A stretch of 64,000 nucleotides of DNA, from positions 44,353 to 108,352 of the forward strand of contig CAJTUT010000002.1 in the NCBI GenBank assembly GCA_910579455.1, in the 5' to 3' direction. Positions 4,154-25,138 of this stretch are shown piece by piece; the first letter of the stretch is position 1; every line of letters starts with the position of its first letter. Origin of the DNA: an uncultured Bacilli bacterium (GTDB lineage Bacteria > Bacillota_I > Bacilli_A > RF39 > UBA660). A program made the position numbers and the translations under genes. Below the pieces are notes generated by a model. That model searched no databases. It had not been told where the DNA came from and was given only the letters and a program-made list of their open reading frames with translations.

Positions 4154-6055
4154 CTATATCTGATAATCATCTTCTAGAGTAAATTCTACATTCTCATCAA
4201 TCCATTCCTTACGAGGGGGAACATCATCTCCCATTAAAACAGAGACACGTTTTTCTGCTAATTGTGCATCCTCAATATTTACCCTAATTAGCGTTCTAGA
4301 GCCAGGTTGCATAGTCGTCTCACATAGTTGATCTGCATTCATCTCACCTAATCCCTTATATCGTTGAATATCACATTTTCTACCTTTAGATTTTTCTTTC
4401 ATTTCTTCCACTGTATAAGCATATTCTACCTGTTTTCCACATTGGATTTTAAAAAGTGGTGGTAGGGCAACAAAAAGGCGACCAGCCTCTATTAATGGTT
4501 TCATATAACGATAAAAGAATGTTAAAAGTAAGCACTGAATATGTCCTCCGTCTTCATCTGCATCGCTCATGATAATAACTTTAGAGTATTCGCAATCTTC
4601 AATTGAAAAATTTTGACCATAACCTGCACCAATTGTATAAATCATCGTATTAATCTCTTCATTCTTCAAAATGTCTTCCTCTTTAGTTTTTTCTGTATTT
4701 AAGACTTTACCGCGTAAAGGAAGAATTGCCTGGTACTTACGATTTCTTCCTTGTTTTGCAGAACCACCTGCAGAGTCTCCCTCTACCAAAAACAATTCTT
4801 TTTTTGTTTTATCTTTACTTCCAGCTGGAGCAAGTTTGCCAGATAAACTTCTCTCCTTTGAATTTCTTTTGCTTCCTTTCCGTGCCTCTTCTCTTGCTTT
4901 TCTAGCTGCCTCCCGTGCAATTTTACTTTTCAAGGATTTATTAATAATCTCTGTTGCAATTACTTTATTTTCTTCTAAAAATACTTTCATTTGCTCAGTA
5001 ACAATAGAATCTACCGCAACTCTTGCCTGAGGCGTTCCAAGTTTTCCCTTTGTTTGACCCTCAAATTGAAGAAGTGACTCAGGTATCTTTAAACTAATCA
5101 CTGCAGTCAATCCTTCTCTAACATCACTACCCTCCAGTGATTTTTCTTTGCCCTTAATAAAACCATTACTTTTTGCATAATCATTAAAGACACGGGTTAA
5201 AGCTGTTTTAAATCCAACCTCATGACTTCCACCATCTATAGTTTTAACATTATTAACAAAACTTACGATATTTTCAGAATAAGTATCCGTATACTGCATA
5301 GAAATCTCTACTTCAATTTTATCCTTTGTACCACCAATAGATAATACCTTATGAAGTACGTTTTTTCCATGATTTAAATCCTCTACAAACTCTTCAATCC
5401 CTCTTTCATAGCAAAATTTTGCTTTTCTTTCATCTTCCTCATCAATAACCTCTATTGTAATTCCTTTTAATAAAAAGGCAGACTCTTGCATCCTTTCACA
5501 TATCGTTGTAAAGGAAAAATTAGTAGAAGAAAAAATATCAGAATCTGGTAAAAATCTAACTGTAGTACCGCTTTTATTTGTACTCCCTATTTTTTTAAGA
5601 GGTACAGAGACTGTTCCACCATTTTCAAATCGAATATAGTACTCTTCTTTATTATGTTTAATAGTTACTTCCATCCATTTGGATAAAGCGTTAACGACAC
5701 TAGAACCAACTCCATGTAAACCTCCAGACACTTTATAGCCATCTGATTCAAATTTACCGCCTGCATGTAATACAGTAAATATAACTTCTGGAGTAGACTT
5801 ACCAGATGCATGCATTCCCGTAGGAACCCCACGTCCATGATCCTCTACACTAACACTTTTATCAGAATGAATTATAATTTTAATATAATCTCCAAAACCA
5901 TTAATTGCTTCATCTACAGAATTATCAACAATTTCCCAAATCAAATGATGGAGTCCTCTTTTATCAGTAGAACCAATATACATTCCGGGACGCTTTCTCA
6001 CTGCTTCTAATCCCTCTAGTATTTTAATCGATGAATCATCATACTTTAACGACAT
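4154..6055 (-). CDS. parE: DNA topoisomerase IV subunit B (ParE/GrlB)
   Basis: GHKL ATPase plus Toprim: ILEGLEAVRKRPGMYIGS, HHLIWEIVDNSVDEA, EGDSAGG, PLRGKVLN. The track ORF starts at 6112, but the conserved N-terminus MSLKYDDSSIKILEGLEAV begins at the ATG 6055-6053, preceded by a GGTGAT RBS. Confidence 0.85.
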   Translation of the reverse strand: MSLKYDDSSIKILEGLEAVRKRPGMYIGSTDKRGLHHLIWEIVDNSVDEAINGFGDYIKIIIHSDKSVSVEDHGRGVPTGMHASGKSTPEVIFTVLHAGGKFESDGYKVSGGLHGVGSSVVNALSKWMEVTIKHNKEEYYIRFENGGTVSVPLKKIGSTNKSGTTVRFLPDSDIFSSTNFSFTTICERMQESAFLLKGITIEVIDEEDERKAKFCYERGIEEFVEDLNHGKNVLHKVLSIGGTKDKIEVEISMQYTDTYSENIVSFVNNVKTIDGGSHEVGFKTALTRVFNDYAKSNGFIKGKEKSLEGSDVREGLTAVISLKIPESLLQFEGQTKGKLGTPQARVAVDSIVTEQMKVFLEENKVIATEIINKSLKSKIAREAARKAREEARKGSKRNSKERSLSGKLAPAGSKDKTKKELFLVEGDSAGGSAKQGRNRKYQAILPLRGKVLNTEKTKEEDILKNEEINTMIYTIGAGYGQNFSIEDCEYSKVIIMSDADEDGGHIQCLLLTFFYRYMKPLIEAGRLFVALPPLFKIQCGKQVEYAYTVEEMKEKSKGRKCDIQRYKGLGEMNADQLCETTMQPGSRTLIRVNIEDAQLAEKRVSVLMGDDVPPRKEWIDENVEFTLEDDYQI

Positions 6056-6274: not shown

Positions 6275-7204
6275 TTAAACCACATTAACACTTCTTACTG
6301 AGGTACCTGTATTCCCATCGCTATCAGTTACCTTATAATATATATAATAAGTACCTAGTCTTGTTGTATCAATTCTATCTATTTTCTCTAAAGCACCATT
6401 ATTAGAATAATAATACGTCATAATAATAGAAGAAGTAGGAATTTTATCCTTATCATCTACTACCTTACTTACCCCTGCATCTATATAATTAGTTCCATGT
6501 TCAACATTAACACTAGACTCTCCATTTAATACAATAACTGGTGTAGTACCATCTACAATATCTTGTTCCTTTACATTATCTTGAACAGCACTCACAACAA
6601 TTCTAGCAGCAAAAGTTTTTCCCTGAACACTATTGTCAGCATCTTCTGTCAACCACATTTTTAATTCGTAGTCAATTTTATCATTTCCAGATTCTGCACT
6701 CAAACTACCACTATCCAAAAGCAGACTATCTGAAAGATACCTAGCATCAGACCAATTGCTATCTCCTAATTTTAGACTATATCGAATATATTTTCTATCT
6801 AGGGTTTTCTCATTAACAGCCATTTCTTCTAAACTAACATTATATTTAGCATTCACATCACCTGTATTCTTAATTGTAAAATGATAACTATCTGTAGCCA
6901 TTCCTTCACTATCACTCATAGGTGCTAAATTAGACATATGAATTTCTTTTCCGTCTTCAAATTTCACCTTAAAAGTTCCTGCTACAATTTCTGTTTCTTT
7001 TTTACTATCGACAGAAAAACGGAAAAATGCATAGCTTGTTCCTATTACAGACATCAATAAAAAAGCTGCTAAAACAATAATTTTTGTTATTTCTCTTCTA
7101 TTTTTCTGATGTAAATTATCATTATTTAATTCTACTGTTCTAAAATGATCTCCTACTTTTCCCTTTTTAAACTGTCTTTTCTTCTTACGATCCATGAATC
7201 TCAC
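6275..7204 (-). CDS. TasA/camelysin-like (SipW-cognate-type) secreted protein with a C-terminal DUF5011/Ig-like domain; short paralogue of the giant protein
   Basis: The N-terminus has a basic tail (KKGKVGDHFRTVELNNDNLHQKNRRE), a TM helix (IIVLAAFLLMSVIGTSYAFF) and then SVDSKKETEIVAGTFKVKF...MSNLAPMSDSEG...FTIKNTGDVNAKY. This aligns by eye with CalY/TasA (GGGTFAYFSDKE...AAGTLDL...DLKPGD...FLLQNSGSLTIK). The first ~205 aa are about 70% identical to the N-terminus of the 2724-aa protein. The C-terminus (PVIVLNGESSVNVEHGTNYIDAGV...YYIYYKVTDSDGNTG) is a DUF5011-type Ig-like fold. Confidence 0.55.
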   Translation of the reverse strand: MRFMDRKKKRQFKKGKVGDHFRTVELNNDNLHQKNRREITKIIVLAAFLLMSVIGTSYAFFRFSVDSKKETEIVAGTFKVKFEDGKEIHMSNLAPMSDSEGMATDSYHFTIKNTGDVNAKYNVSLEEMAVNEKTLDRKYIRYSLKLGDSNWSDARYLSDSLLLDSGSLSAESGNDKIDYELKMWLTEDADNSVQGKTFAARIVVSAVQDNVKEQDIVDGTTPVIVLNGESSVNVEHGTNYIDAGVSKVVDDKDKIPTSSIIMTYYYSNNGALEKIDRIDTTRLGTYYIYYKVTDSDGNTGTSVRSVNVV

Positions 7205-7288: not shown

Positions 7289-8011
7289 TTACTTACTACC
7301 TTCCCTAGAAAAAACTAAAATATTATTTTTATAAATCTTATATCGAACTTTAACCGTTCCAATATTCGTTCCAAATTTTACTATATTTTTATTAGTTAAA
7401 TACTTTTCGATATTTTTTCTATTACTATCCCCTCTCAAATAATCATTAATATTCTTTACTGCTGATTCATCCTTTTTATCCATATAAAAATTTAATACTT
7501 CATGCGGATTCTTCACTTTATATTGGTTATAAATAACTTCATAGGTATTCCTACCTTTCTTTTTCATTTTTTTTATATCATATTTTATTAAAGGAATTTC
7601 TGCTATAACAGAAGAGGATAGATCATCTGTTGTTATAATATACTCATCAGTAGTTGGATTATACGTTATATATTGCTCTATCATATATGAGGTAATCCCT
7701 ACTTCCTGTATTTGTTTTTTATTTACATTCAGATCAAAATGACGATTTATAAATTCTACTATTTCCTCTACCCCCACATTATTTTTGTGATATTCGTTTT
7801 TGTAATAAACAACAGTATAACATATATAGTGATCTAAATCATTTTTCTCTAAAACATTCATATATGTCATCATTCTATCGCTATACTTTTTAATAGTAAA
7901 TTTCTCTAAATCGGACATTCTAAATCGATTAAGTATTAATAGGGATAATAGTAATATAATTATCCCTATCATAACATATTTAATTTTAATTATTCTTTTT
8001 ATTTTCTCCAT
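7289..8011 (-). CDS. membrane-anchored hypothetical protein (N-terminal TM, ~200-aa extracytoplasmic part)
   Basis: 240 aa with an N-terminal hydrophobic segment IGIIILLLSLLILN. It sits between the two TasA-like genes, 10 bp after the giant gene stop. Its size and position resemble TapA in the tapA-sipW-tasA operon, but there is no sequence motif to support that. Confidence 0.5.
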   Translation of the reverse strand: MEKIKRIIKIKYVMIGIIILLLSLLILNRFRMSDLEKFTIKKYSDRMMTYMNVLEKNDLDHYICYTVVYYKNEYHKNNVGVEEIVEFINRHFDLNVNKKQIQEVGITSYMIEQYITYNPTTDEYIITTDDLSSSVIAEIPLIKYDIKKMKKKGRNTYEVIYNQYKVKNPHEVLNFYMDKKDESAVKNINDYLRGDSNRKNIEKYLTNKNIVKFGTNIGTVKVRYKIYKNNILVFSREGSK

Positions 8012-8021
8012 AGACTATCTC

Positions 8022-11000
8022 CTACTCCATAAATTCTAGAATACAATACTCATATCCTGTTTCTTCGTCAGTATAAAATCTTACTTCATATCCTGGTTCT
8101 ACCTCAGTTGTAGTCTCTGGTTTTGCATTTGTTGAACCGATGATCCTTCCATCATAATATTTAAATATACCATTCCCTTTTATTACACCAATTCCTGTTA
8201 CTGTAGCAGTTGCTTGTATTAGTGGATTTTCTATTGAGACATTAGCATAATTAGTACCAGATCCATCCTTTATCCCCATTATAACAGTACCACTATCTAT
8301 GTAAATACCGTAAGCCATTCTACCATGAACATCGATTCTTCCACTTTCTAGTTTTATGTTAGAATCACTATTCGATGAGTATATACCTGCTGAGGTAATA
8401 TTACGACCACTAAATACATTTGTGTTTTCCCTCAAATAAATATTCGTATTTTTTAACGTTAAATTGGCAGCTGCTTGTGTAGATATACCATAATTACTAG
8501 TAAAGTTTTCTATATTAAAATCTGTATTTTCTATATTAATATTAGAATTATCATTTATTACAATAGCTGTTGCATCAGCCGAATTTACTGTAGTATTAGA
8601 TGTAATAGCTACATTTTTTATAGATGCATCAGAACTCAATACTATACCCACATATTGAGTGATGTCACCATCACTTGATATCGAACCACCCTCTATATTT
8701 AGTTGACCTTTTCGATGACGTATTATTGGATCACTATCACTAGTACGATAGCTATATATAATATTTGTATTAAGCAAATTTAATATAGCATTTTGATTAT
8801 TATTATCGATAGTAGAGTACATAGTTCCCCCTTGGATTGTTAATTCTCCACTATTATTTACGATATCTCTATATCCAAAATAATAACCAGATACACGATA
8901 AGTATTATTCCGTAAAAGGGCTTCATGATCTTCAGAAGTTTGGTTATAAAATAGATAACCACCAGTTTTCTTATCACTTTTATTTAATGTTGAGTTGCTT
9001 ATCTTACAATTTGAATAATTATATATTCCCGATGATATTACATCTAAAGTTATATCATTCGCTACTAGATTTGCCCCTGCATAATTATGAATTCCTGAAT
9101 ATCCTTTAAATGATGTGCCATTAGCCTCTATACTTGCATTAGCAAAATTAGTAATTAGATAATAATTCGTCGTTAAATTTTCTAATAAAATATCCTCCAA
9201 AACTAAATTTCCTTTATTCGAAATGATAATTGAATTTGTACTAATACTTAACTTTCCTTGATCTGCATTATCCCTTATAGATAATGTTCCTTCATTCATT
9301 ATTGCCTGATTTAGTCTTAGATGATGCCCGTTTAAATCTAATGTAATATTTTTTCCAGCAGTATTAACTTCCTCAAATACCTTAGAATCTTTAATAATCG
9401 TCAACGTATCTCCATTCTGAGATTCTAGTACAGCTGTTTTTAAACTCTTATATTGCATCTCGCCATTTTGAACAAAATATTCTGTTGCTTTTAATGTATT
9501 TCTATGATACATGACCTCGTCAATAATTTGAGTATCATCATCAATTACATAATCATTTGGTATTTTAGAAATTGCCCCATAGTATCCAGCTATTTGCCCA
9601 GATAAAGCACCATCATAGAATGATATAGTTCCATTACCTCCATTATATAGTCCATATTGTTCTCCTATTACTTCTGGACTTTTCGTACTTACTTCATCAT
9701 CCTTATTTCCTAACACCAAATTTGCATTATTTTTTGTTTCTATTCCATATGTTTTTCCTACAATTTTTCCTCCATATACATTTAAGTTTCCATTATTCAT
9801 GATGATACCATCTCCCGATTGTCCTGTTATGGTTCCTTGATATATATTAATTGTGGCACTAGCACTTGAACTTACAAAAATTCCTTCAGAACCAGAGATT
9901 TCTCCATTATAAATATCTAGAGTTCCTCCATTTACAGTTATACGATTACTTATGTTTGGAACCTTTGTTGCATCTTCTGGATCTCCTATTACTGTATTTC
10001 CATAACTACTAATTGATCCATAGCTTCCACTTTTTATTGTTATGTTTGCTCGTTCATGTGCTGAAGGATTTACCCTATAAATATTTGAATTCTCTATTGT
10101 CACATTTGCATTATTGCTAGCTGTAACTCCACCTCTATCAATTTCTACTCCTGTAATATTGACTGTTTTACCTGTTGCTATAGAAATAGTCGTGTCATGT
10201 TTACTATAAGAACTATAACTACCTCCTGTAATATCTATATCAGTTGCAATATACAATACTCTAGCACCATTGGCTGCACTATACGTTCCTCCTGTAATTT
10301 TTCCTTTTCCTGATAGATAAATTACACTTGCTCTTTCTGTTGTTTTTATCGTTCCTGAATTTACTGTTAAATCATTTGTTGACTTGATTGCATATTCACC
10401 ACTTACTACTGATGTGTTAGTATAGGATCCTGTAGCTTCTACACTACTATCTAATATTCTCAATTTTCCTTCATTTGTAATCATTTTTGAGTTTACAAGT
10501 TGCTTTCCACCCAAATCGATGGTTATTTCTTTTCCATTTGGTATTAATACTTCTTCTGCTATTGATACAGACTCAATTACTTCTATAGTACCTTCTGTAT
10601 CTATCGCATCAAGGGCTTTCTTGAAAGTATTATACTCTTCATCTCCTACCTTTAAGAAGTTTGTCATTTTTCCTAAATATGATGTGCTATATAGGATTCC
10701 ATCGACAGTTTCTTCACCTGTTTCTATACCATATCCATCAAGAAGTGTCGTAATTACTCCTGCATGTCCTGCAGTTGTTCCTTTTAATATTCCGTCATAG
10801 AATGATATAGTTCCATTACCTCCACTATATAGTCCATATTGTTCTCCTATTACTTCTGGACTTTTCGTACTTACTTCATCATCCTTATTTCCTAACACCA
10901 AATTTGCATTATTTTTTGTTTCTATTCCATATGTTTTTCCTACAATTTTTCCTCCATATACATTTAAGTTTCCATTATTCATGATGATACCATCTCCCGA

Positions 11001-14000
11001 TTGTCCTGTTATGGTTCCTTGATATATATTAATTGTGGCACTAGCACTTGAACTTACAAAAATTCCTTCAGAACCAGAGATTTCTCCATTATAAATATCT
11101 AGAGTTCCTCCATTTACAGTTATACCATTATATTTACTGATTATAGAAGGAAGTTTAGACTTATCATTTGCATCACCTATATTTACACGACCATTAGAGG
11201 TAAGCGCTGTAGACACCGATTCATAGTTTCCCTCTATCACATTAAGTATACCACTATTATTGGATATACAATATCTCCCTTTATAGGTTCCATTTTTAAT
11301 CACTAAATTACCTTTACCATTAATACTGTAATTCTGTACATCTATATTGGCATTATCTATGATTATTGTTCCGGAAGTATAAATACCGTTTTTACCTGTA
11401 GTAATGTTCACATCGACAATTTCTACATTTGCATCTGGTGACATTTTTATTGCGTAACTACCTGTCGATTGAAAATAACCACCATCAAGAATGAACTTGT
11501 CTGAACTAGATATATAAAGGGCATCACCTGAAATGGAATTAATATGAGAATTATTATCAATAGTTAATTCACCAGCATTTATATTTAACCCGTAACCACC
11601 TGTTGCATTAACATTTGAACGAATAATATTTAAATAACCACTGCTGTCTATTGTGTTTGTGTTTGTTGTCTGGCTTATAGTAATACCATCTAAACTTAAT
11701 GTAGCAGTGCTTTTGTTAGTTATTGTTTTAGATATTTTTAAGATTCCCTTTATTACACTACTATCTATTAATTTTAGATTTCCTGAATTGGTTACATCAT
11801 ATCCTGTTTCTACAGTGTAACCTGATACATCTATAATTACCTCTTTATTTTGGGCTAAATCAAGTGGATATGCTGCTTCGAAATCCCTTATTGCATAGAT
11901 CGTTCTATTTTTCTCAAAATCAGTATTCATATCTGTTATAAAGTCAATTGCATCTTGTAAATTAAAATAATAATTTGTACTAATAATTTCGTTACTATCC
12001 TCACTACTATAATTTACTGTTTTAGCTACTGCTCTTGTCAAGATTGAAGATGTCTCTTCTAAATATATTTTTTGATAACCATTACTATAATCGTGATCTG
12101 TAAACACTTCATATCCTTCTGGTTTGTTGTATACATAACCATCAAGTCCTAATTCTGCAGTTATTAATCCATCATAGAAATTCATTATTCCTTGCTGTTC
12201 TATTCCCTTTGTTGTTCCTTCTATACATGGATTATCCTTTAATACATCCCCATCATTTTCTCCTAAGGTTAATATAGAATGATTTACTATTGCCGTATTA
12301 GTTGTGTTCTTAATAGTACCATTGTTAAGAATTGTTAATGTACCATTATTTATTATTGTACTATCATTAACTCCTGTTACGGTTTTTCCATTCAAATCAA
12401 GAGTTATATCTTTTACATTTTCTACACTTTCTATTGTGTCTTTCAACATCACAATGGTATCGCCACTTTCTTTAGCAGCAGCCAATGCCTCTTCTAAACT
12501 TTTATAATATACCTTTTCTATTCTAGCAACAGCATCACTAGAACCTATTTCTGGTTTTTTTATGGTAATCGTATACTCCTTAGTTGCTGTAGAATAATTA
12601 TTAGTTGCTAAACAGGTCACTCGTATAGTTATTACAGTCCCAATAGCTAAATTGGAAAGATTTGATATTGTTACAGTTTTATCATCTAAAGTAACTTCCG
12701 CGTCAGTTTCCGTAACCTCTACTACACTAGTTTCTCCTCCATGTGAATCTACTATCATAAAAGAGTCACTATCTTGACCTTGATCAATGATTCTTTCATT
12801 AGAACTTAAATCAATATATCCCTGTGCACGTATAATGTCATAGGCCTTTCTATTATTATCTAATGTATAATTTTCAATACGTCCTCTTCCTCCTATAACA
12901 CTAGCTATAGAGACTTCTGATACATAACTACCTACATCAACTGCTTTTGACTGAATTAATTCTAATGCTTCGTTTTCTATTCGATCATTTAAACTATATT
13001 CATAATCTGGAGCTTGTCTTTCCCCATTATAAGAAAATTCAGTTGCCTCATCCCATGTAATATTCACCCTTTTAGGAGTGATAGTATGTGCAACACAACT
13101 TGATTGAAGAGGAAGACTCCCTTCCTTTCCTTCTAATACTGCTTTTACTGAATAATTACCTGCATCAATTGGAACAGATGACAACTCATTGCTACAATTT
13201 GTATCACTATAATATTGATAAGAAAGCTGTGAAGAATCTACACCTTCTGATACTTTTGCGTCATTTGCTTCTATTTCTCTACCAGTATATTCTTCAATTT
13301 TAGAATTTAAAGAGATACTTTCTGATCTTTTAAAAATTGCATATAGAGTCATATTCCCTGTAACAGTAGGAGGTGAGGTGAAACCGCTGGAAGAATCTTT
13401 ATTAGTGTGCCATCCTAAAAAGTCATATCCACTTTTTTTTGCAACTTCATCTAAATCAACAATATCCCCATATCTTAAAGTTTTATCTGGGATATTGCAA
13501 CTACCACCTGTTGTAGTACAATCATACTTTATCACATATTTTTTTTCTTTTGCCCTTGCAATTAGTTCCTTATTTCCATGAATTGTATACTCATCATTAG
13601 GATTTCCAATAACTGTATCATGATCATACCATTGACCACTAGCATAATGATCCCTACTTATAATATCTGGTAATGTCTTCGTACAATTATGACCCTCAAC
13701 AGTATAACGATCTCCATCCATTATTTGGTAGTTATCACACTGATCACTAGTAGATCCTATACTTTTAACAGACTCATCATCATTGGTATAAGAAACTTCC
13801 CATTTTCCTTTATATACCGCATAATACACTTCATTCTTTGTTGTAATGGAAGACTCAATATGACGATAATCAAATGGTCTAGTAGATAATCCATAATAAG
13901 TTCTATCATCCCCACCTTGTGATAAAAGAACCTCTTCTGGTACAGAAACTTCTTCTTCATTAATATGATAAGTCGCACTATCTTCATTTATTAACACAGA

Positions 14001-16196
14001 GTTAACCTTATTTGTTGAAAAAATGAACCTTTGTCCGTCGTTATAATAATAAAACTTAGTATCAATATTACCAGTATATACCGCATAATACACCTGATTA
14101 TTAGTAATGTTGGTATATATATCTTCCGTTTCCATATTGTTTAACTTAGAAGAAATTCCCTTATATGGTAGTCCCCTTAAGCCAATACTATTTACCACCT
14201 CATCAGAAGCTCTATAAGTACCCTTATTTTGATTATAAATTGTTTTATTTTCTGTTATAGATTCTACATTCCCATTATTATTATAATAGACCTTAATACT
14301 AATATCTTTTGAAGTAATTGCATAATATGTAGAATTATCAGATATCATTTTTTTTGTATTAATATCCCAGCTACCACTAGTATCGTTTTCATTTTGACTA
14401 AATCCTAGGATTTTATATCCTTCTCTTTCTATAGAAGGAGAAGATATTTCACAACTGGTAGCTTCTCCCCAAATCTCACAACTTTTAGTAGTAGAATCTA
14501 ATTGACTACCATTAGCAGAAAAGGTAACAGTTACTTCCTTATATACATTTACTGTAATATCAATCATAGATGAAGTAGCTGTATCTGTGACTGTTATAGT
14601 CGTAGTTCCAACAGAAACCCCCTGAATCACTCCATTCTTATCTACTGTTGCAATACCAGAATTACTACTCGCATATGATAAAGTACCCGTATTGTTGCTA
14701 ATATCCGCTTTTTTGGATTGCCCAACCTTTAAATTAATCTCATCGTCAGAAGAAGAAATATCACCAATTTTTTTTACTTCTATTTTTTTACTTACTACAT
14801 TATGGTTGGTATCATATACCCATAAATAATAAGTACCACTACTAGGAACCACGAATTCTTTATCATATTGATTCGTTACCTCCTCCAATTTAGTATAATT
14901 AGAAGTAGTTGGCATTTTATTATGATTACTTAAATAATAACCACCTATATTTCCCTCTTTTGCCATGATATGAACTGGAATATAGTACTTGTTATCCTTT
15001 CTGGTAATTGTCTCAGTAGTAATTTCAATACTTCCCTTAGGAATGATATGAACAACTCTAACAACACTATTAGTATTTCCCTTACTATCAATAACAATAT
15101 ACTTAACTGTATAAACCCCTTCAACAAAAGAGTTTACAGTTCCAACGGTAATGATCTTATCTGTCAAGACACCATCTTCTATATCCTCAGCACTAGCACC
15201 TAAATCTTGATAGGTTTCACCCTTTTTCAATTCTAAATTTGATTCCCCTACTAAATCAATAGTAGGAATGTGGTCATCAGAAGTAGGATTAACACTAACA
15301 CTTACAACTGTACACCCAATATTTCCATTTTTATCACTAACTCTATAATAAATATAGTAAATTCCTAATTTAGAAGGGTCCACATTATCAACGGTCATAG
15401 TATTTACTCCATCATAATATTCATATGTCTTAGTAACATTAGAAATATCAATACTCTGACCTGAACTATCCTTAATTTCATATGGAACAGGATCCGTAAA
15501 AGAATCATTCAAAGAGATATGAATAGACGTATTTGGAATGTTAATTACAGGGGCAACAAGATCATTAGCAGCACCGTTACTTTGTACAGCACTCACAACA
15601 ATTCTAGCGGCGTATGTTTTTCCTTGAACACTATTGTCAGCGTCCTCTCGTAGCCACATCTTAAGTTCATAATCTACCTCATCTTTTCCAGATTCTGCAC
15701 TTAAACTACCGCTGTTTAAAAGTAAACCATCAGCAAGAGATCTTGGACTTGTCCAACTCCCATCACTTAATTTAATACTATAATTAATATATTTTCTATC
15801 TAAAGTATTAGAAGATGCTGGAGTTTCTTCTAAACTAACATGATATTTAGCATCAATAGTTCCTGTATTTTTTATGGTAAAATGATAACCATCTGTACTC
15901 ATTCCTTCACTATCACTCATAGGTGCTAAGTTAGTCAAATGAATTTCATTTCCCTCCTCAAACTCAACCTTAAACGTTCCAGCCACAACTTCATGCTCAC
16001 TAGTATTATCAATTAAAACTTTAAATAATCCGTAGCTAGTGCCAATGACAGAAATTAATAAAAACATTACTAAAATAGCAATCTTTTTATATTCCCTTTT
16101 ATTCTTCCTTTTTAAATTATCATTATTGATTTCCACAGTTCTAAAACGATCACCAATTCTACCTTTATGAAAACTTTTTTTATTTTTGTTACTCAT
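8022..16196 (-). CDS. giant (2724 aa) secreted/surface multi-domain protein: N-terminal TasA/camelysin-like domain, 2x DUF5011 Ig-like, Big_2, Flg_new (Listeria-Bacteroides) repeats, >=4 parallel beta-helix modules
   Basis: One uninterrupted ORF. N-terminus: basic tail, TM, then IGTSYGLFKV...EVVAGTFKVEF..LTNLAPMSDSEG..FTIKNTGTIDAKY (TasA/CalY-like). Two DUF5011-like domains (DHIPTIDLVGESNLELKKGETYQDLGASAEDIEDGVLTD). Big_2 (TLSYASSNSGIATVDKNGVIQGVSVGTTTITV). Flg_new repeats (TVTFSANGSQLDS...EGYKILGF; KYVIKYDC...SGYDFLGWH). Recurrent beta-helix entry motifs (SLEEALAAAKESGDTIVMLKD...ITLDLNGKTV; GDTLTIIKDSK...ITLDLNGHHL) and Gly-rich G..I.N.G.L.I rungs. No C-terminal LPXTG. Confidence 0.8.
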   Translation of the reverse strand: MSNKNKKSFHKGRIGDRFRTVEINNDNLKRKNKREYKKIAILVMFLLISVIGTSYGLFKVLIDNTSEHEVVAGTFKVEFEEGNEIHLTNLAPMSDSEGMSTDGYHFTIKNTGTIDAKYHVSLEETPASSNTLDRKYINYSIKLSDGSWTSPRSLADGLLLNSGSLSAESGKDEVDYELKMWLREDADNSVQGKTYAARIVVSAVQSNGAANDLVAPVINIPNTSIHISLNDSFTDPVPYEIKDSSGQSIDISNVTKTYEYYDGVNTMTVDNVDPSKLGIYYIYYRVSDKNGNIGCTVVSVSVNPTSDDHIPTIDLVGESNLELKKGETYQDLGASAEDIEDGVLTDKIITVGTVNSFVEGVYTVKYIVIDSKGNTNSVVRVVHIIPKGSIEITTETITRKDNKYYIPVHIMAKEGNIGGYYLSNHNKMPTTSNYTKLEEVTNQYDKEFVVPSSGTYYLWVYDTNHNVVSKKIEVKKIGDISSSDDEINLKVGQSKKADISNNTGTLSYASSNSGIATVDKNGVIQGVSVGTTTITVTDTATSSMIDITVNVYKEVTVTFSANGSQLDSTTKSCEIWGEATSCEISSPSIEREGYKILGFSQNENDTSGSWDINTKKMISDNSTYYAITSKDISIKVYYNNNGNVESITENKTIYNQNKGTYRASDEVVNSIGLRGLPYKGISSKLNNMETEDIYTNITNNQVYYAVYTGNIDTKFYYYNDGQRFIFSTNKVNSVLINEDSATYHINEEEVSVPEEVLLSQGGDDRTYYGLSTRPFDYRHIESSITTKNEVYYAVYKGKWEVSYTNDDESVKSIGSTSDQCDNYQIMDGDRYTVEGHNCTKTLPDIISRDHYASGQWYDHDTVIGNPNDEYTIHGNKELIARAKEKKYVIKYDCTTTGGSCNIPDKTLRYGDIVDLDEVAKKSGYDFLGWHTNKDSSSGFTSPPTVTGNMTLYAIFKRSESISLNSKIEEYTGREIEANDAKVSEGVDSSQLSYQYYSDTNCSNELSSVPIDAGNYSVKAVLEGKEGSLPLQSSCVAHTITPKRVNITWDEATEFSYNGERQAPDYEYSLNDRIENEALELIQSKAVDVGSYVSEVSIASVIGGRGRIENYTLDNNRKAYDIIRAQGYIDLSSNERIIDQGQDSDSFMIVDSHGGETSVVEVTETDAEVTLDDKTVTISNLSNLAIGTVITIRVTCLATNNYSTATKEYTITIKKPEIGSSDAVARIEKVYYKSLEEALAAAKESGDTIVMLKDTIESVENVKDITLDLNGKTVTGVNDSTIINNGTLTILNNGTIKNTTNTAIVNHSILTLGENDGDVLKDNPCIEGTTKGIEQQGIMNFYDGLITAELGLDGYVYNKPEGYEVFTDHDYSNGYQKIYLEETSSILTRAVAKTVNYSSEDSNEIISTNYYFNLQDAIDFITDMNTDFEKNRTIYAIRDFEAAYPLDLAQNKEVIIDVSGYTVETGYDVTNSGNLKLIDSSVIKGILKISKTITNKSTATLSLDGITISQTTNTNTIDSSGYLNIIRSNVNATGGYGLNINAGELTIDNNSHINSISGDALYISSSDKFILDGGYFQSTGSYAIKMSPDANVEIVDVNITTGKNGIYTSGTIIIDNANIDVQNYSINGKGNLVIKNGTYKGRYCISNNSGILNVIEGNYESVSTALTSNGRVNIGDANDKSKLPSIISKYNGITVNGGTLDIYNGEISGSEGIFVSSSASATINIYQGTITGQSGDGIIMNNGNLNVYGGKIVGKTYGIETKNNANLVLGNKDDEVSTKSPEVIGEQYGLYSGGNGTISFYDGILKGTTAGHAGVITTLLDGYGIETGEETVDGILYSTSYLGKMTNFLKVGDEEYNTFKKALDAIDTEGTIEVIESVSIAEEVLIPNGKEITIDLGGKQLVNSKMITNEGKLRILDSSVEATGSYTNTSVVSGEYAIKSTNDLTVNSGTIKTTERASVIYLSGKGKITGGTYSAANGARVLYIATDIDITGGSYSSYSKHDTTISIATGKTVNITGVEIDRGGVTASNNANVTIENSNIYRVNPSAHERANITIKSGSYGSISSYGNTVIGDPEDATKVPNISNRITVNGGTLDIYNGEISGSEGIFVSSSASATINIYQGTITGQSGDGIIMNNGNLNVYGGKIVGKTYGIETKNNANLVLGNKDDEVSTKSPEVIGEQYGLYNGGNGTISFYDGALSGQIAGYYGAISKIPNDYVIDDDTQIIDEVMYHRNTLKATEYFVQNGEMQYKSLKTAVLESQNGDTLTIIKDSKVFEEVNTAGKNITLDLNGHHLRLNQAIMNEGTLSIRDNADQGKLSISTNSIIISNKGNLVLEDILLENLTTNYYLITNFANASIEANGTSFKGYSGIHNYAGANLVANDITLDVISSGIYNYSNCKISNSTLNKSDKKTGGYLFYNQTSEDHEALLRNNTYRVSGYYFGYRDIVNNSGELTIQGGTMYSTIDNNNQNAILNLLNTNIIYSYRTSDSDPIIRHRKGQLNIEGGSISSDGDITQYVGIVLSSDASIKNVAITSNTTVNSADATAIVINDNSNINIENTDFNIENFTSNYGISTQAAANLTLKNTNIYLRENTNVFSGRNITSAGIYSSNSDSNIKLESGRIDVHGRMAYGIYIDSGTVIMGIKDGSGTNYANVSIENPLIQATATVTGIGVIKGNGIFKYYDGRIIGSTNAKPETTTEVEPGYEVRFYTDEETGYEYCILEFME
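9613..9943. repeat. 331-bp intragenic direct repeat, copy A (about 99.7% identical to 10795..11125)
   Basis: Direct comparison of the sequence: 9613-9943 and 10795-11125 (offset 1182 bp) differ at a single position. Both encode ...EQYGLY(S/N)GGNGTISFYDG / ITVNGGTLDIYNGEISGSEGIFVSSSASATINIYQGTITGQSGDGIIMNNGNLNVYGGKIVGKTYGIETKNNANLVLGNKDDEVSTKSPEVIG. Confidence 0.9.
10795..11125. repeat. 331-bp intragenic direct repeat, copy B
   Basis: See copy A. Flanking sequence diverges immediately (9944 g versus 11126 c). Confidence 0.9.
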
Positions 16197-16374: not shown

Positions 16375-16716
16375 TTATTTTCCTGGCTTAAAAGCATGTA
16401 CTATAACCTTAGTTTTATCCTTACTTAACTGTGAAGTATACTCATAAAAATCATTCATTCCTTCAGAAGTTCCCTGTTCTAAATATTGAAGACACTCATC
16501 CAAATGTTGGTCAATAAACTCTCTAATTTGCAAATTATCCACATTATCTTTATTCGGTTTAGAAATTTGAAATGCATTAGGAACAGATAATTTTGTTATA
16601 TCATACTTCTGATCTCCAACCCTAAAATAATAAACAACATTATCTTCTGATTTTTCTGGTGAAGTTTCCCCAGAAATCATCTGATATAAGTCAACTACCT
16701 CAATTGTATTATCCAT
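16375..16716 (-). CDS. hypothetical acidic small protein
   Basis: 113-aa ORF with good coding appearance and no recognisable motif. Confidence 0.45.
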   Translation of the reverse strand: MDNTIEVVDLYQMISGETSPEKSEDNVVYYFRVGDQKYDITKLSVPNAFQISKPNKDNVDNLQIREFIDQHLDECLQYLEQGTSEGMNDFYEYTSQLSKDKTKVIVHAFKPGK

Positions 16717-25061: not shown

Positions 25062-25138
25062 TGGTAGCGACGGAGGGAATCGAACCCCCGACCTTTCGGG
25101 TATGAACCGAACGCTCTAGCCAGCTGAGCTACATCGCC
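25062..25138 (-). tRNA. tRNA with anticodon CAT (elongator tRNA-Met, or tRNA-Ile2 if lysidinylated), CCA encoded
   Basis: The reverse complement folds as a cloverleaf: acceptor GGCGATG/CGTCGCT, D-arm GCTC-AGCTGGCTA-GAGC, anticodon stem TTCGG / loop TTCATAC / CCGAA, variable AGGTC, T-arm GGGGG-TTCGATT-CCCTC, discriminator A, CCA. Confidence 0.85.

Follow-up and report, generated by a model that had tools for sequence, protein, structure and literature searches.

Probable recombination between two beta-helix modules within the gene of a giant putative surface protein from an uncultured gut Bacilli lineage

Introduction

Intragenic recombination between repeats in surface proteins is textbook material, and a new instance of it will not surprise the specialist. 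In the large bacterial surface proteins called Periscope Proteins (SasG/Aap, Rib, Sgo_0707, CdrA, and Esp), the DNA identity between repeated folded domains has been proposed to drive the in-frame gain or loss of whole repeats, and assembling the corresponding genes is difficult unless long reads are used (Whelan et al. 2021; PMC8201768). The locus described here lies in a 64-kb stretch of contig CAJTUT010000002.1 from an uncultured gut bacterium of the Bacilli (the window, taken at its full length), where an open reading frame (ORF) on the minus strand encodes a protein of 2724 amino acids (aa) that is putatively secreted or exposed at the surface. Its C-terminal half is made of four paralogous modules (M1-M4). 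The tails of M2 and M3 are nearly identical in DNA, very probably following a recent ectopic intragenic recombination, of one form or another, that placed M3-type sequence onto M2.

As in Periscope Proteins, an orthologue of the protein (P0001) appears to have gained one whole module by this intragenic route. The Periscope repeats, however, are small domains (~70-130 aa), mostly Ig-like and highly identical to one another, which follow each other in long tandem arrays and together make a stalk, whereas here there are four beta-helix modules of ~400 aa with ~27% mutual identity and a tract that covers part of a module only. Instead of a tandem array of highly identical whole domains, 110 of the ~400 residues of two modules are identical; in addition, the C-terminal wall anchor is absent from the 2724-aa protein. 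Since whole domains of high identity are not arrayed in tandem in it, and length variation between strains is a prediction only, we do not class the protein as a Periscope Protein.

Two other systems are close in some respects. In the surface-exposed CagY of Helicobacter pylori, many intragenic direct repeats are reported to recombine, with variants that are invariably in frame (Aras et al. 2003; PMC2194252); CagY can serve as a model for in-frame deletion and duplication between dispersed direct repeats inside one ORF. Its direct repeats are described as very many and short, with variants demonstrated experimentally and in vivo, unlike the gene in the window, which has a single 331-bp repeat pair known from comparative evidence only. 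The other system is the concerted evolution of bacterial paralogues (surveyed in PMC6053082), with which the locus shares a similarity within the genome above that between orthologues, sharp boundaries, and a discordant phylogeny. The surveyed cases concern separate genes, often homogenised over their whole length and over long periods, whereas the present tract lies within one gene, is partial and recent, and varies between lineages in extent and direction. The gene is thus a further case of a known phenomenon, in which the large size of the beta-helix modules and the mosaic tracts covering part of a module are the less usual features.

A near-identical tract in the tails of modules 2 and 3

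The earlier note on this DNA, made from the sequence alone, had singled out the segments 9613-9943 (copy B) and 10795-11125 (copy A) as a near-perfect direct repeat (Table 1). Comparison base by base at an offset of 1182 nucleotides (nt) bears this out, with 331 nt in common and one mismatch that separates exact runs of 300 nt (9644-9943) and 30 nt (9613-9642). Both copies are in frame in one ORF; the start-to-start spacing of 1182 nt amounts to 394 codons and keeps the frame, again as had been noted. Recombination between the copies would remove or add a unit of 1182 nt, made up of the spacer (9944-10794) and one copy of the repeat. No third copy is present on either strand of the window, nor is any other high-identity repeat found anywhere in the 64 kb.

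At the protein level the similarity continues beyond the repeat and diverges, as was also claimed, the modules being paralogous with 25-33% aa identity over their whole length (windowed self-BLAST and local jackhmmer; self-BLASTP of the 2724-aa protein was informative only after the protein had been cut into windows). In a codon alignment of M2 with M3, the two flanks of the tract have aa identities of 27.8% and 26.5% and nt identities of 42% and 46%, with third positions at 35-37%; within the tract, 99.1% of the third positions are identical. The same codon is used at 108 of the 109 identical residues in the tract versus 22 of 54 in the upstream flank. Chance is excluded, because a run of 300 matches at a flank identity of 0.43 has a probability of ~1e-110 per position. 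A tract of near-identity bounded by homologous flanks that are far more diverged, synonymous sites included, is the pattern by which gene conversion is recognised.

Could selection alone have produced such a pattern? An old duplication might have been held identical by strong purifying selection, and in its favour the tract stops within the motif that is best conserved across the family (the FYDG box, see below), while the rungs of the tail show more conservation than the module's middle. Protein-level constraint is nevertheless excluded as the cause, because the synonymous sites are identical within the tract, and the codon counts just given refute an origin by selection only. Moreover, the orthologous tails differ by 26-56% in aa between species and the M2 tail of P0001 is quite different (44% identity). 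We therefore give this explanation practically no weight.

Two near-identical repeats in the gene of a surface protein, with a lone difference that is A versus G on the coding strand, also call to mind a diversity-generating retroelement with its template and variable repeats. Here, though, there is one difference in 331 nt and not many adenine-specific ones, and both copies are in-frame structural parts of one protein. The neighbouring genes (gyrA/gyrB-like genes, two small ORFs, ABC/FtsX, and a histidine kinase) include no reverse transcriptase. The gene was rejected as a target of such an element on the absence of a reverse transcriptase gene in the neighbourhood and of a pattern of adenine mutagenesis, and the chance that it is one seems to us negligible. 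A mobile element was rejected as well, the tract being an in-frame, orthologous part of the module with no third copy.

Ancestry of the tract and direction of the transfer

The closest full-length relatives are P0001 (71% identity, 3100 aa), P0003 (47%, 2801 aa), and P0004 (37%, 3348 aa, with five modules). A scan of genome contigs added a partial orthologue, L006 (69%), from the mouse-gut metagenome-assembled genome (MAG) MGBC131677. The M2 and M3 modules of the window protein and of these four relatives were aligned and the percent aa identity computed by region. Between the window and P0001, the M2 modules are 76% identical in the head and 44% in the tract, and the M3 modules 72% in the head and 74% in the tract. 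Within the window protein, M2 and M3 are 27% identical in the head and 99% in the tract. With the M3 of P0001, finally, the window M2 shares 26% in the head and 74% in the tract. The heads thus group by module position across species, whereas both copies of the tract group with the M3 tail of P0001. The M2 tail of P0001 also bears insertions that the window tract lacks in the alignment.

The discordant ancestry of head and tract implies that M3 sequence replaced the tail of M2 in the lineage of the window after its split from that of P0001. Since the M2 tail is of M3-type ancestry, gene conversion fits better than a simple duplication. The homogenised portion comprises the last ~110 of the ~400 residues, or 28% of one module. 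Where the earlier note had spoken of a recent duplication or an ongoing gene conversion of one beta-helix module, the identities by region support that description and sharpen it to a transfer of part of a module from M3 to M2.

Tract boundaries and the FYDG box

Each of the modules M1-M4 is closed by an (F/Y)YDG box, after which comes a short cap, and the box is the best-conserved stretch between modules. The downstream end of the tract falls on the second base of the Asp codon in this box (TTC TAT GA/C GGA in M2 and TTC TAT GA/T GGT in M3, with the slash at the boundary), and synonymous differences between M2 and M3 start directly after it. Such a sharp synonymous divergence past the box marks a boundary of recombination and not one of constraint. 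On the low-coordinate side of the tract the identity is ~45-55%; on the high-coordinate side it is at background immediately, with just 4+4 matching nt past 9943/11125.

The downstream ends are visible in three of the four lineages with a tract (the window, P0001, and P0003), and they lie at the FYDG box or at most 15 residues after it; the contig of the fourth, L006, stops before the downstream end of its tract. Two distant relatives, P0050 and P0047, also carry such tracts, and there the tract straddles the FYDG box rather than ending in it.

Recombination between modules 2 and 3 in related lineages

Events of the same kind have occurred independently in relatives, as the assembled contigs show by comparison. 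In P0003 (contig L003), an exact tract of 754 nt (8794-9547 of L003, offset 1218) covers 250 aa in the middle and tail of M3. Its polarity is opposite to that in the window, with M2-type sequence in M3: the transfer went from M2 to M3, because the 754-nt tract holds M2-specific segments. In L006, the contig begins to repeat its own M2 tail without a mismatch (5102-5156 versus 6311-6365, offset 1209) and breaks off after exactly 55 nt. This break is the signature of a de Bruijn branch at k=55 and reveals another M2/M3 repeat.

In P0001 (contig L001, 6026-8391), 1202 nt are 100% identical at an offset of 1164. A unit of 1164 bp has here been duplicated in tandem without a single mismatch (2.03 copies), and a second M3 is gained by it. 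A 38-nt sequence of the FYDG box is triplicated, flanking the M2 to linker-H, the M3 to linker-H (the new junction), and the M3 to linker-Y transitions. Read in this way, the sequence is what unequal crossover or slippage at the FYDG box classically produces. The new junction is unlikely to be a graph-loop artefact, provided that L001 was assembled at a k comparable to or above 55, because a repeat of 38 nt falls below the k=55 seen in L006. In another sample of the study that yielded L001, the contig L004 (99.8% identical to L001) has one M3 at 5x coverage, where the two-copy contig has 17.7x; this one-copy form is either a real allele or a collapsed duplicate. The P0004 lineage, a small control, has no identical tract, and its seven full-length cluster members all measure 3348 or 3347 aa. 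Contig L008, from the scan of genome contigs, stops upstream of the modules and is uninformative on tracts; a scan of JGI metagenomes gave just two distant N-terminal relatives and no further orthologues or strain variants.

One step or two

Among the possible forms of recombination, we lean towards a one-step, non-reciprocal gene conversion in which the M3 tail was copied over the M2 tail. The last ~110 codons of M3 would have been copied over the matching part of M2, with one end of the conversion anchored at the conserved FYDG box, during a repair or template-switching event that took the neighbouring module as template.

The same end state is predicted by a route in two steps, in which an unequal crossover at the FYDG box duplicates M3 and an in-frame deletion from mid-M2 to the matching point of the first M3 copy then restores four modules, with an M3 tail on M2. 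The first step is what P0001 displays, with its triplicated 38-nt box, its new junction between M3 and linker, and 0 mismatches in 1164 nt. This route also predicts that the identity stops at the FYDG box, as observed, and a single junction in poorly homologous sequence suffices for it. It requires, on the other hand, two rare events, and in the second of them the deletion would have to join exactly homologous points, in frame, within sequence of just 42% identity. The lineage of the window has no known five-module intermediate, and the P0003 tract, with its opposite polarity (M2 onto M3), would require a different and more complicated path. On balance, we hold the two-step route to be possible and somewhat doubtful.

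Several points weigh on one-step conversion. Outside the FYDG box the modules are ~42% identical, so that at the upstream boundary a classical RecA-mediated conversion would find little homology in which to begin or be resolved; for this reason the two-step route is a serious alternative. The cluster of the window protein has three members, all 100% identical, and conversion that continues today, like variation in length, is for this species no more than a possibility. Finally, every comparison sequence is a metagenome assembly, and such assemblies are prone to collapse or miscount exact repeats.

By either route, the gene now contains a 300-bp perfect direct repeat with its copies 1182 bp apart, on which homologous unequal recombination or replication slippage can act well. 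A perfect repeat of 300 bp is far above the minimal homology for RecA-dependent exchange. A deletion would remove 394 codons in frame and leave a three-module protein of 2330 aa without the linker and the head and middle of M3; a duplication would add 394 codons and give a five-module protein of 3118 aa. The register of the beta-helix would be kept in either outcome. The earlier statement that the repeat allows deletion or expansion in frame is therefore right in its 394-codon arithmetic, and P0001 carries the predicted type of product in its in-frame tandem duplication of 1164 bp.

Assembly of the repeat

Similar but non-identical tails, or another number of modules, could have been turned into the observed structure by an assembler that merged or re-used a repeat node. 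The source is an assembly of metagenome type, assembly from short reads always leaves some doubt about how many copies of an exact repeat there are, and de Bruijn assemblers can pop bubbles between near-identical repeats. Furthermore, the public MAG of the same strain (GCA_022791375.1, labelled "Bacilli bacterium"), which matches the window at 100% identity, has contig breaks at precisely these sites. Its contig JAAVYZ010000068 (L002) corresponds to 23336-10991 of the window at 100% identity and stops 135 nt into copy A, and JAAVYZ010000038 (L005), corresponding to 9783-7022, keeps just the last 171 nt of copy B. About 1.2 kb (9784-10990 of the window) is missing from this MAG, whose annotation splits the gene product into partial proteins of 1735 and 586 aa (accessions MCI8347746.1 and MCI8347312.1). 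The warning in the earlier note that such repeats are a source of assembly collapse or mis-join is borne out by these breaks in both copies, as it is by the end of L006 55 nt into its own repeat.

The way in which the MAG breaks also tells against an artefact, since its contigs enter copies A and B (135 and 171 nt) at 100% identity and then stop, as expected of a true branch in the read graph. The single mismatch between the copies has been preserved in the window, the module order and the reading frame are colinear with three orthologues, and comparable tracts occur in independent studies and assemblers as well as in 18 of 148 representatives of the family. With breaks of the MAG in both copies, a mismatch that has been retained, and comparable tracts in independent relatives, an artefact is very unlikely. 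The window protein is recorded on an NCBI contig of 109,216 bp. The M3 head is orthologous to that of P0001 (72%); no sign of a mis-join was seen in the window, because the join there is colinear with the orthologues and in frame; the number of M3 copies given by the assembly is provisional. More generally, module counts from short reads should not be trusted in this beta-helix family.

The wider module family

Searched with a profile of the module, a set of 1.84 billion cluster representatives yields 14,225 representatives of the family, counted at 50% clustering, at E<=1e-3; at E<=1e-30 the number is 1,661. Many of these proteins measure 2,000-7,000 aa, and the profile can match as many as 28 stretches. 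Tracts of 60 aa or more, with an identity of 95% or more and an offset of 250 aa or more, occur in 18 of the 148 best representatives (P0078-P0225). The true figure is probably higher, since assemblies from short reads are interrupted at such tracts.

The analysis points to a large family of multi-module beta-helix proteins, for whose modules there is neither a Pfam nor an NCBIfam model and in which tracts are common. Within it, the gene in the window offers a clean, well-bounded case of concerted evolution at the level of modules, with an identifiable donor, recipient, and recombination anchor, and a relative that shows the predicted length-changing product. One may speculate, although we rate it as rather improbable, that the FYDG box at the module ends serves as a built-in recombination anchor and that this very large family of multi-module giant proteins from gut Firmicutes forms a "beta-helix periscope" system. 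If so, conversion of partial modules together with gain and loss of whole modules would be a frequent and selected source of surface or antigen variation, and not a series of occasional accidents.

Architecture of the giant protein

The N-terminus of the 2724-aa protein, read directly from the sequence, consists of a basic stretch and a hydrophobic signal/anchor segment, IAILVMFLLISVIGTSYGLF; a C-terminal LPXTG is absent by the same reading. Pfam matches (Bact_surface_Ig-like, Big_2, and Flg_new, the Listeria-Bacteroides repeats) are confined to the N-terminal half. For the C-terminal ~1500 residues neither Pfam, even in a relaxed search, nor NCBIfam provides a family; on the modules, Beta_helix (PF13229) stays below its gathering threshold (E 0.12, 12.5 bits versus a cutoff of 25.9). 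A sequence search of the PDB with modules 2-3 gave nothing meaningful.

The label "beta-helix" that the modules had been given is confirmed by an AlphaFold2 (AF2) model and its fold neighbours, which predict a right-handed parallel beta-helix of the pectin-lyase-like type. In the model, copy B corresponds to residues 241-351, that is, to the last beta-helix rungs before the FYDG box and the C-terminal hairpin cap. The fold neighbours include adhesins as well as glycan-degrading enzymes: beta-helix passengers and adhesins (Vag8, UpaB, pertactin, Hap, and PfbA), tailspikes, and polysaccharide lyases have 9-18% sequence identity to the module. Unlike autotransporters of the Vag8/pertactin type, the protein comes from a Gram-positive-type Bacilli MAG, has an N-terminal signal/anchor, and contains several tandem beta-helix modules. 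The recognised domains are limited to the stalk type (Ig-like, Flg_new) plus the beta-helices. Fold and architecture allow the role as an adhesin that the earlier note had assigned to the protein, but also one as an enzyme.

Table 1. Positions in the window of the giant gene, its modules and repeats, and neighbouring features
Feature	Position	Strand	Remarks
Giant ORF, 2724 aa	8022-16196	minus	From the ORF list; both repeat copies inside, in frame
Beta-helix modules M1-M4	8025-12533	minus	
M2, structural module, aa ~1390-1844	10665-12029	minus	Head and middle M2-type, tail M3-type (alignments, region identities)
M3, structural module, aa 1845-2240	9477-10664	minus	N-cap, right-handed parallel beta-helix (predicted), FYDG box, C-terminal hairpin
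M4 and C-terminus, aa 2241-2724	8025-9476	minus	Outside the identity tract
Repeat copy A, last ~110 codons of M2, aa ~1691-1801	10795-11125	minus	Probable recipient; ancestral M2 tail would have been overwritten
Repeat copy B, last ~110 codons of M3, aa ~2085-2195	9613-9943	minus	Probable donor type
Lone mismatch of the copies	9643 / 10825		T vs C on the plus strand; coding strand AAT (Asn, M3) vs AGT (Ser, M2)
Unique spacer, 851 nt	9944-10794	minus	Encodes M2 C-cap/linker, M3 head and middle
FYDG box ending M3	9603-9620	minus	M2 equivalent at 10785-10802
First ~300 residues of giant protein	15300-16196	minus	Paralogous to the 309-aa ORF
309-aa ORF	6275-7204	minus	Two genes downstream of the giant gene
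Direct repeats, 309-aa paralogue vs giant gene	6576-7122 / 15577-16123		9001 bp apart
240-aa ORF	7289-8011	minus	Immediately downstream of the giant gene
113-aa ORF	16375-16716	minus	Upstream of the giant gene
tRNA-Met	25062-25138	minus	

Neighbouring genes and composition of the window

The 309-aa ORF is a paralogue of the start of the giant protein (Table 1), with the same signal/anchor, N-terminal domain, and Ig-like domain; the identity is 56% in aa and 74-76% in nt, and the two stand in direct orientation. It has a weak match to camelysin/Peptidase_M73 (E 9.7e-4, below threshold). Neither the 240-aa ORF nor the 113-aa ORF on the other side of the giant gene has a Pfam or NCBIfam match. 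The order giant gene, ~240-aa ORF, ~306-aa paralogue is kept in L001; L001 and L003 both have the 240-aa ORF in its place, and for the 113-aa ORF a call at the corresponding site exists in L002, from the MAG of the same strain.

The minus strand holds 32 of the 33 ORFs of at least 200 aa in the window, and over the whole of 1-64000 the GC skew has strongly negative values (-0.22 to -0.39 per 2 kb), at a GC content of 25-34%. The tRNA-Met gene is the only RNA gene found in the window.

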